Origin: a virus
Lineage: Duplodnaviria > Heunggongvirae > Uroviricota > Caudoviricetes
Reading direction: 5' to 3' (one strand)
DNA length: 6,941 nucleotides
IMG/VR virus record: IMGVR_UViG_2541047442_000018
Below are positions 1,252 through 1,327 of the stretch, piece by piece. The number at the start of each line of letters is the position of its first letter. Position 1 is the stretch's first letter. The notes beneath the pieces are model-generated. The model ran no database searches, was not told the origin of the DNA, and saw only the letters and a program-made list of their open reading frames with translations. Made by a program: the position numbers and the translations under genes.

Positions 1252-1327
1252 ATTAGGTAATTCTAATTTTTCTTGACTTAGGTTTCTCTACGATCTAGTT
1301 TCCTTAGGAAAATCTAAGGGTTTCGAT
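1252..1327. promoter_or_regulatory. immunity switch region: three 14-bp operator-like sites plus divergent promoters
   Basis: Seen in sequence: TTAGGTAATTCTAA (1253..1266), TTAGGTTTCTCTAC (1278..1291) and TTAGGAAAATCTAA (1304..1317), all of the form TTAG-N6-CTAA/C, start 25 and 26 bp apart. Rightward promoter candidate: -35 TTGACT (1273..1278), 17-nt spacer, -10 TAGTTT (1296..1301). Leftward promoter candidate: -10 TAGAAT (complement of 1260..1265). The repressor ATG (1251..1249) has no Shine-Dalgarno and sits 2 nt from site 1. Confidence 0.6.

Follow-up and report, generated by a model that had tools for sequence, protein, structure and literature searches.

Site-by-site map of the probable right operator region in the DicA/DicC-type lambdoid immunity switch of an Sp9/PPompW-type prophage

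The viral DNA record IMGVR_UViG_2541047442_000018 is 6,941 nucleotides long (the whole of it is called the window here), and its positions 1252–1327 form a short spacer between a leftward repressor gene and a rightward Cro-like gene. This spacer is very probably the right operator region (OR) of a DicA/DicC-type lambdoid immunity switch that is laid out as is the c2-cro region of phage P22. An earlier note on this DNA had proposed a three-operator switch between the repressor and Cro-like genes, and that proposal is borne out by a block-for-block alignment with the dicA-dicC region of the Escherichia coli K-12 prophage Qin and with P22 c2-cro, in both of which the operators have been defined. 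The switch itself is already known; it is a P22-like DicA/DicC system, earlier work on the K-12 homologue has described its operators and a leaderless repressor mRNA, and the locus has been named and studied. What is added here is a site-by-site map of the region in prophage Sp9, a second pair of operators to its left (OL), and a family rule that joins the repressor start codon, the first operator and the −10 hexamer of the repressor promoter.

Positions 1–6505 of the window share 99.8% identity with the Sp9 prophage in E. coli O157:H7 Sakai, and the two sequences diverge after 6505; many E. coli O157:H7 genomes, Sakai and EDL933 among them, match positions 780–1600 at 100% identity. The Sakai locus is a lambda-like prophage that adjoins ompW; it has integrase, exonuclease and "cell division inhibition protein" genes to the left of the switch and replication genes, paa and a hok gene to its right, and deposited PPompW prophage records label the same repressor "dicA: regulator for DicB". 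None of the complete E. coli genomes of our collection matches positions 5900–6941 at ≥99% identity over the full length. The window comes from an Sp9/PPompW-type prophage of a strain that is unlike Sakai after position 6505.

The spacer (ATTAGGTAATTCTAATTTTTCTTGACTTAGGTTTCTCTACGATCTAGTTTCCTTAGGAAAATCTAAGGGTTTCGAT; 76 bp, 32% G+C) was searched together with the rest of the window, on both strands, for the pattern TTAG-N6-CTAA with one mismatch allowed. There are five matches in the entire window, and three of them are sites 1, 2 and 3 of Table 1, whose start-to-start distances are 25 bp (sites 1 and 2) and 26 bp (sites 2 and 3). The pattern search and the open reading frames (ORFs) thus agree with the statement of the earlier note that three TTAG-N6-CTAA/C sites are present at 25–26 bp spacing between divergent repressor and Cro-like genes; the other two matches, which are downstream of the repressor gene, it had overlooked. 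Three matches within 65 bp occurred in one of 2000 dinucleotide-preserving shuffles of the window, and when the 76-bp intergenic region itself was shuffled three sites were present in 2e-5 of the shuffles. Site 3 forms the core of a perfect 18-bp palindrome, CCTTAG-N6-CTAAGG (1302–1319), which is the sole such palindrome in the Sp9 region, and it overlaps the ribosome-binding site of the Cro-like gene (AAGGG, 1316–1320). Two details of the original description need adjustment. The repressor start codon (1249–1251) is separated from site 1 by one base (1252) and not by two, and the reported overlap of site 2 with the rightward −35 hexamer is real but amounts to a single shared base (T1278), the remainder of the site filling the promoter spacer.

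Table 1. Features of the switch region and its surroundings, in window coordinates.
Feature	Position	Strand	Sequence	Match, basis or relation
OL1-like operator	719–732		TTAGAATAGCCTAA	Perfect match; overlaps spacer and −10 of leftward PL/dicBp-like promoter
PL/dicBp-like promoter	745–740 (−35); 721–716 (−10)	minus	TTGACC, 18-nt spacer, TAAATT	Consensus scan; aligns with K-12 dicBp
OL2-like operator	755–768		GTAGAAAAACCTAA	One mismatch; upstream of PL −35; 36 bp from OL1
Repressor gene, dicA-type (Sakai ECs_1765)	844–1251	minus		135 amino acids (aa); NF007257, Pfam, K-12 identity
Site 1	1253–1266		TTAGGTAATTCTAA; ATTAG-N6-CTAAT, half-sites ATTAG twice	Perfect match; counterpart of Qin Oa, P22 OR3
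−10-like hexamer, leftward (PRM-like) repressor promoter	1260–1265	minus	TAGAAT	Inside site 1; 8 nt before ATG
−35 hexamer, rightward (PR/dicCp-like) promoter	1273–1278	plus	TTGACT	Aligns with K-12 dicC promoter and annotated P22 PR
Site 2	1278–1291		TTAGGTTTCTCTAC; CTTAG-N6-CTACG, half-sites CTTAG and CGTAG	One mismatch (CTAC); counterpart of Qin Om, P22 OR2
Weak −35-like hexamer, leftward promoter	1283–1288	minus	GAGAAA, 17-nt spacer	Putative assignment; within site 2 and rightward spacer
−10 hexamer, rightward promoter	1296–1301	plus	TAGTTT, 17-nt spacer	Aligns with K-12 TATCTT; predicted start ~1308
Site 3	1304–1317		TTAGGAAAATCTAA; half-sites CCTTAG twice	Perfect match; counterpart of Qin Oc, P22 OR1
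Cro-like gene, dicC-type (Sakai ECs_1766)	1328–1555	plus		75 aa; NF007282, Pfam P22_Cro
YdaT-type CII-like regulator gene, next in rightward operon	1539–2090	plus		Pfam YdaT_toxin; PHROG 163 "CII-like transcriptional activator", E 3e-40

The order of the blocks is common to Sp9, Qin and P22: repressor start (CAT on the strand shown), 1–2 nt, site 1, 6 nt, TTGACT, site 2, −10 hexamer, site 3, ribosome-binding site and ATG. In K-12 the layout is CAT-AG-TTAGctaatgCTAA-atcgta-TTGACT-atgtttttgttaacatc-TATCTT-g-TTAGttatgaCTAA-caataaaggtgttttaa-ATG, in Sp9 it is CAT-A-TTAGgtaattCTAA-tttttc-TTGACT-taggtttctctacgatc-TAGTTT-cc-TTAGgaaaatCTAA-gggtttcgat-ATG, and in P22 c2-cro it is CAT-AG-TTAAGtcatCTTAA-ataaac-TTGACT-aaagattcctttag...-TTTAAGtgttCTTTAA-...ATG. 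Because this order is the same in all three, sites 1, 2 and 3 can be named the positional counterparts of Oa/OR3, Om/OR2 and Oc/OR1, respectively. The P22 GenBank record annotates OR1–3 as overlapping the rightward promoter PR and the repressor maintenance promoter PRM. In K-12 the three operators have been named Oa, Om and Oc in the dicA-dicC literature (Bejar et al. 1986/1988; Yun et al. 2012, PMC3441716; Ragunathan and Vanderpool 2023, PMC10448788). Oc (TTGTTAGTCATAACTAACAA, TTGTTAG-N6-CTAACAA) is bound by DicA in vivo, and one A-to-C change in it abolishes DicA binding; the start of dicC has been mapped, by rapid amplification of 5′ cDNA ends (5′ RACE), downstream of a TTGACT/TATCTT promoter; and dicA transcription requires DicA, which binds the Oc-type site and represses the Cro promoter. 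The dicA-dicC and dicA-dicBp regions are described as both holding operator sets like those of lambda OR and OL (PMC10448788).

The Sp9 and Qin regions share their protein subfamilies, the block order within an intergenic region of ~80 bp, the TTAG-N6-CTAA core, TTGACT, an Oa-type site 1–2 nt from the ATG, an Oc-type site that abuts the −10 of the Cro promoter, a repressor start that has no Shine-Dalgarno sequence (the leader is 3 nt in K-12), and a downstream PL/dicBp promoter with operators that drives a ydfA...dicB-type operon. They differ in the flanks of the half-sites (CCTTAG in Sp9 and TTGTTAG in Qin), a difference that probably reflects distinct immunity specificity, as well as in the middle site, which is a good match in Sp9 and degenerate in Qin, and in the distance from site 1 to site 3 (51 bp in Sp9, 50 bp in Qin); moreover, the Sp9 prophage is close to complete and still excises, and Qin is a remnant. 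P22 immC has the same succession of ATG, 2 nt, OR3, 6 nt, TTGACT, OR2, −10 and OR1, with interdigitated divergent promoters and sites spaced at 25 and 23 bp (25 and 26 bp in Sp9), but its half-site is TTAAG with a 4-bp centre rather than TTAG with a 6-bp centre (the overall span is 14 bp in both), and its C2 protein has 216 aa and a LexA-like autocleaving C-terminal domain that the 135-aa Sp9 repressor does not have.

The repressor matches the NCBIfam model NF007257 "transcriptional repressor DicA" over its whole length (residues 1–135 of 135; 241.6 bits, cut-off 101) and is 63% identical to K-12 Qin DicA, and the Cro-like protein matches NF007282 "DicC" (167.6 bits, cut-off 130) and is 83% identical to K-12 DicC. 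The Pfam matches of the repressor (HTH_3, Phage_CI_repr) are to helix-turn-helix (HTH) families only; its residues 2–69 match the N-terminal domain of P22 C2 (PDB 1adr, 2r1j, 3jxb; E ~1e-21), and a tblastn search with it finds P22 c2, with ~69% identity over residues 21–68. No Pfam match to Peptidase_S24, the C-terminal peptidase-oligomerisation domain of CI and C2, is present in the 135-aa protein, and Asadulghani (2009) also reported that the Sp9 repressor is without a peptidase domain. Its previous description as a C2/CI-type repressor is therefore correct for the N-terminal HTH, which is P22 C2-like, but not for the C-terminal domain of those proteins. Judged from its sequence, it is a member of the DicA subfamily, with a C2-like HTH and a short C-terminal domain that contains no S24 peptidase.

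One genome per species was scanned for the family, which gave ~35 full-length DicA-family loci to which viral contigs and phages were added; the loci span Escherichia, Citrobacter, Enterobacter, Pantoea, Erwinia, Serratia, Yersinia, Buttiauxella and others. When they are aligned on the TTGAC hexamer these ~35 loci have the same architecture, as do phages phiES15 and BUCT708; TTGAC(T) is conserved in them, and site 1 is 1–2 nt from the repressor ATG in Qin, in P22 and throughout the ~35 loci. The sequence of the half-site covaries across the family with the recognition helix of the repressor, such that HV(T/S)xSQWE is found with TTAG-N6-CTAA, HVTxF/YKWEN (FKWEN/YKWEN) with TTAA-N6-TTAA, and SISLWES with the P22-like TTAGATATCTTAA and with TTGAG-N4-CTCAA. 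In the Sp9 group the middle site matches well, but Qin and several other groups have a degenerate version of it. When 16 distinct Sp9-type intergenic variants are compared, variation affects 2 of 24 core positions and 21 of the 44 others (Fisher p = 0.001, which is approximate because the variant sequences are related to one another); the core positions of site 1 are invariant in these variants and those of site 2 are conserved, and four of the six positions of the rightward −10 hexamer TAGTTT vary. As far as sequence comparison can tell, the three repeats are the repressor-binding sites of the prophage switch, and chance is an improbable source for them.

Both predicted promoters of the spacer are embedded in this array of sites. 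The position of K-12 TATCTT, with which the rightward −10 hexamer aligns, agrees with the 5′ RACE start of dicC, and relative to the predicted rightward start (~1308) site 3 is at about −4 to +10, site 2 at −30 to −17 and site 1 at −55 to −42. On the leftward side the annotated −35 of P22 PRM (AGGAAT) is at the position equivalent to Sp9 GAGAAA; relative to the predicted leftward start, site 1 extends from +1 to −13, site 2 overlaps the −35 and site 3 is centred near −57.

The sequence before the repressor start codon, read on the repressor strand, is ...AAAAATTAGAATTACCTAAT-ATG. Neither Sp9 nor any of 36 family loci has a Shine-Dalgarno-like tetramer in the 18 nt that precede the repressor ATG, and a TANNNT hexamer 6–9 nt before the ATG is present in all but one of these loci (35/36). 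The primary transcription start site (TSS) of K-12 dicA is 3 nt before its ATG (differential RNA sequencing, with a check by RNA ligase-mediated reverse transcription PCR), which is the seventh base after TAGCAT, the K-12 counterpart of Sp9 TAGAAT, and dicA is listed among the known leaderless E. coli genes. The P22 GenBank record annotates the 5′ end of the c2 (PRM) mRNA 4 nt before the ATG, and the corresponding P22 hexamer is TAAGAT. If the hexamer-to-TSS rule of K-12 is applied to TAGAAT, the Sp9 repressor mRNA should start at 1253 or 1254 and have a leader of 2–3 nt. The idea that the repressor ATG has no Shine-Dalgarno sequence and is translated from a leaderless transcript is thus supported, through the homologues, by the absence of such a tetramer and by the very short leaders of dicA and c2.

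Several points weigh against the conclusion that this region is a three-operator switch with a leaderless repressor mRNA. A consensus promoter scan of positions 700–1700 flagged neither intergenic promoter (the rightward one scored 8/12, below the threshold), so that the promoter assignments rest on alignment to the mapped K-12 and annotated P22 promoters. In seven viral contigs (L042, L046, L049, L050, L052, L059 and L072) the rightward −10 is TGGTTT rather than TAGTTT (the change is at the equivalent of window position 1297); these variants lose the key A at −11, and their Cro promoter may be weakened. Site 2 would have its centre ~32 bp before the predicted TSS of the repressor, where it overlaps the −35, and this is not an obvious position for an activator. 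Reg-Seq detected no active dicA TSS in a K-12 construct. No published binding or start-site data for Sp9 itself were found in the searchable literature, and a literature search for ECs1765/ECs1766 found no papers. A homologue of the K-12 antirepressor Rem (see below) is absent from the window, which diverges from Sakai after 6505. Finally, K-12 Om and Oa were not bound by DicA in vivo when cloned singly, though the Oa core TTAG-N6-CTAA is perfect. Since K-12 Oa is unbound, the core by itself must be insufficient for binding, and sites 1 and 2 stay putative targets of the Sp9 repressor.

This K-12 result, in which DicA bound Oc and not Om or Oa when each was cloned alone, is compatible with a one-site system, where site 3, the Cro-proximal equivalent of Oc, is the one site that works for the repressor and sites 1 and 2 are either P22-like vestiges or targets of DicC only. 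Such a system would fit the degeneracy of the middle site in Qin and several family groups, as well as the standing of site 3 as the sole 18-bp perfect palindrome of the Sp9 region. However, the cores of sites 1 and 2 are kept in the Sp9 group while the neighbouring bases drift, the position and symmetry of site 1 are conserved family-wide and its sequence changes with the recognition helix, an assay of single sites is blind to cooperative binding, and OL too has two sites at a conserved 34–36 bp spacing. We therefore think a one-site system unlikely, and prefer the reading in which all three sites serve the switch.

A different objection concerns the repressor mRNA, which might come mainly from a leadered transcript that begins further right, at a promoter which resembles the establishment promoter (PRE) of lambdoid phages and is activated by the YdaT/CII-like protein, and that runs antisense through the Cro-like gene, in which case the ATG-proximal hexamer would be no promoter. 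Lambdoid phages do have PRE, and that of P22 is annotated; the leftward −35 (GAGAAA) is poor and was not flagged by the scan, and the Reg-Seq construct was without an active dicA TSS. On the other hand, the K-12 dicA primary TSS and the P22 PRM start are 3 and 4 nt before the ATG, the hexamer-to-ATG geometry is kept in 35 of the 36 loci, a read-through transcript would also meet no Shine-Dalgarno sequence at the repressor ATG, and an establishment PRE would coexist with a maintenance promoter and not replace it. The published YdaT site TTGATT-N6-AATCAA has eight matches at ≤3 mismatches where 4.9 are expected, none of them convincing, and no PRE-like site could be proposed from them. This explanation seems to us quite improbable, and the short-leader maintenance transcript is retained. 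That the repeats are merely chance palindromes of an AT-rich spacer without a regulatory role, as the 32% G+C content of the region and a motif that specifies just eight bases might suggest, can be dismissed in view of the shuffling results, the selectively conserved cores, the positional homology to experimentally defined K-12 and P22 operators and the covariation of half-site and helix.

The two additional matches, the OL pair of Table 1, are ~535 bp from the OR sites and flank the −35 of the PL-like promoter, and in 14 of the 19 family loci examined a second site is likewise 34–36 bp from the first. The OL spacing is about one helical turn longer than the 25–26 bp of OR, so the same relative helix face would be kept; this relation is a hint, not proof, of cooperative contacts between dimers. 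In the predicted PL leader (690–703, minus strand) an inverted repeat, ACACCGCACGGTGT, and the sequence adjacent to it are nearly identical in Sp9-type loci and K-12 Qin, and a related repeat is also found in more distant loci; its role could be that of a nut-like or a processing signal. The hairpin was dropped as a stable RNA fold, as it is no more stable than shuffled sequences (z = −0.4).

The sequence, its homology and conservation, the start sites of the homologues and the DicC/DicA cross-regulation at the locus (below) would accommodate the following scheme, in which the order of site occupancy, cooperativity, the exact Sp9 start sites and the mechanism of self-activation are our suggestions. 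The 135-aa repressor, as a dimer, would bind through its C2-like HTH to 14–18 bp inverted repeats with the core TTAG-N6-CTAA, and because the quality of the half-sites ranks in this way, its expected affinity is site 3 > 2 > 1, according to the logic of OR1, OR2 and OR3. Bound at site 3, on the rightward start point, and at site 2, in the spacer, it would turn off DicC, the CII-like regulator and the replication genes. The weak repressor promoter, GAGAAA-17-TAGAAT, would give an mRNA that has no ribosome-binding site and is translated as a leaderless message. The two predicted start points are ~55 bp apart and each −35 is in the spacer of the other promoter, so only one RNA polymerase should be accommodated at a time; P22 PR and PRM are annotated with the same interdigitation. 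Repressor at sites 3 and 2 would favour its own transcription, either by removal of this competition or by direct contact with polymerase, and promoter competition, with or without such contact, could explain why transcription of dicA depends on DicA in K-12. Because the −10-like hexamer is inside site 1, occupancy of that site by DicC or by excess repressor should stop repressor synthesis by turning its promoter off. The sites at 719–768 would control the PL-like promoter, which would drive a ydfA/dicF/dicB-type operon; in Sakai Sp9 the gene annotated "cell division inhibition protein" is further left on that side.

Lambda differs here in that its PR and PRM start points are ~82 bp apart, so that both promoters can be occupied together, and its OR2 is ~10 bp further from PRM than the Sp9 counterpart. 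In P22, repressor at OR2 stimulates PRM; a literature search for open-access text on P22 PRM and OR2 gave nothing usable. A bolder version of the scheme would make the Sp9-type region a complete P22-type switch that is independent of the SOS response, with three OR and two OL sites filled cooperatively by a 135-aa repressor that has no CI-type C-terminal domain, spacings (25/26 bp in OR, 35/36 bp in OL) that differ by one helical turn, a possible 535-bp OL-OR loop and self-activation purely by eviction of polymerase from the rightward promoter, Qin being a decayed one-site remnant of it; we put this forward only tentatively and think it less likely than not.

Pan et al. (2019) overexpressed O157:H7 DicC and found by quantitative reverse transcription PCR that dicA mRNA went down and dicB mRNA went up. 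Their cloning primers for "dicA" and "dicC" are identical to window positions 1251–1230, 844–866 and 1328–1349, and a 50-nt deletion arm is identical to 1278–1327, so their work was done on this very locus. Asadulghani (2009) reported that Sp9 is not inducible by mitomycin, that its excision is spontaneous and that its DNA becomes packaged. More than 500 genomes carry the repressor ORF intact, at ≥99% identity. These results are in keeping with the suggestion of the earlier note that the immunity module may still work in spite of the decay of downstream genes, of which the stop codon in the DUF1627 gene (below) is an instance. Since the repressor has no autocleavage domain, RecA should not bring about induction. 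Repression by DicA is relieved in K-12 by the antirepressor Rem, and Sp9 is probably induced by a Rem-type antirepressor. Sakai Sp9 encodes just past hok a protein, ECs_1774, with 71% identity to K-12 Rem, the reported DicA antirepressor; the Sakai sequence (L001) and the window part from Sakai position 12726 on, and Sakai carries this gene where the window has a YgiW/YdeI (BOF) gene (6553–6897).

Two other switches are instructive in comparison. Lambda OR, like that proposed for Sp9, has three operators between divergent repressor and cro genes (at 23–24 bp in lambda), a leaderless repressor mRNA, an OL counterpart and bistable logic, but its repressor family and operator sequence are different and its CI is cleaved in the SOS response. 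The paaR2-ydaS switch of cryptic prophage CP-933P of E. coli O157:H7, for which leaderless translation of PaaR2 has been demonstrated (Jurenas et al. 2021, PMC8630535), is from the same host and resembles the switch proposed for Sp9 in its short repressor without SOS cleavage, its divergent Cro-like YdaS, its CII-like YdaT, its operators over PR and PRM, its PL with OL sites and its bistable behaviour. PaaR2 is only a distant relative of DicA, however; its operators differ (consensus GTTTAGTAA, four inverted repeats), and its operon carries a toxin-antitoxin pair.

The switch mapped here governs an O157:H7 prophage, Sp9/PPompW, that carries the adherence gene paa (and in Sakai also a gene annotated as one for a cell division inhibition protein), and the operator/promoter map helps to explain why the repressor gene has stayed intact in hundreds of genomes amid the decay of other prophage genes and why induction of Sp9 is spontaneous rather than caused by DNA damage. 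It also yields a rule for annotation, namely that the repressor ATG abuts an inverted repeat that holds its own −10 hexamer, that TTGACT follows 6 nt on, and that the half-site tracks the recognition helix. Current understanding of such switches is not challenged by the map, and its significance is modest.

Some features of the remaining window are recorded here as well. The lambda-P-like ORF (2891–3556) overlaps, by ~210 nt and in another frame, the end of the O/DnaT-like ORF (stop 3102), and Pfam homology to P starts upstream of both ATG 3095 and the start annotated in Sakai (~3134), which suggests that the start is set wrongly, that the long overlap is natural or that a frameshift happened long ago. 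The DUF1627 gene (3590–4324) has an in-frame TAG at 3641–3643, and the Sakai annotation of it starts only at GTG 3743. ORFs at 4240–4932 and 2–208 gave no match in a Pfam search; the former group, which is without a family match, and then an AT-rich stretch (~4980–5180) precede 5184–5942, which is paa/adfO, the gene for the porcine attaching-effacing associated adherence factor (Pfam SBP_bac_11) and thus virulence-associated cargo. An Rfam scan found sok only (6131–6280, 103.9 bits), with no match in the switch region, and together with the Hok ORF at 6278–6433 (Pfam HOK_GEF) it constitutes a hok/sok type I toxin-antitoxin locus.

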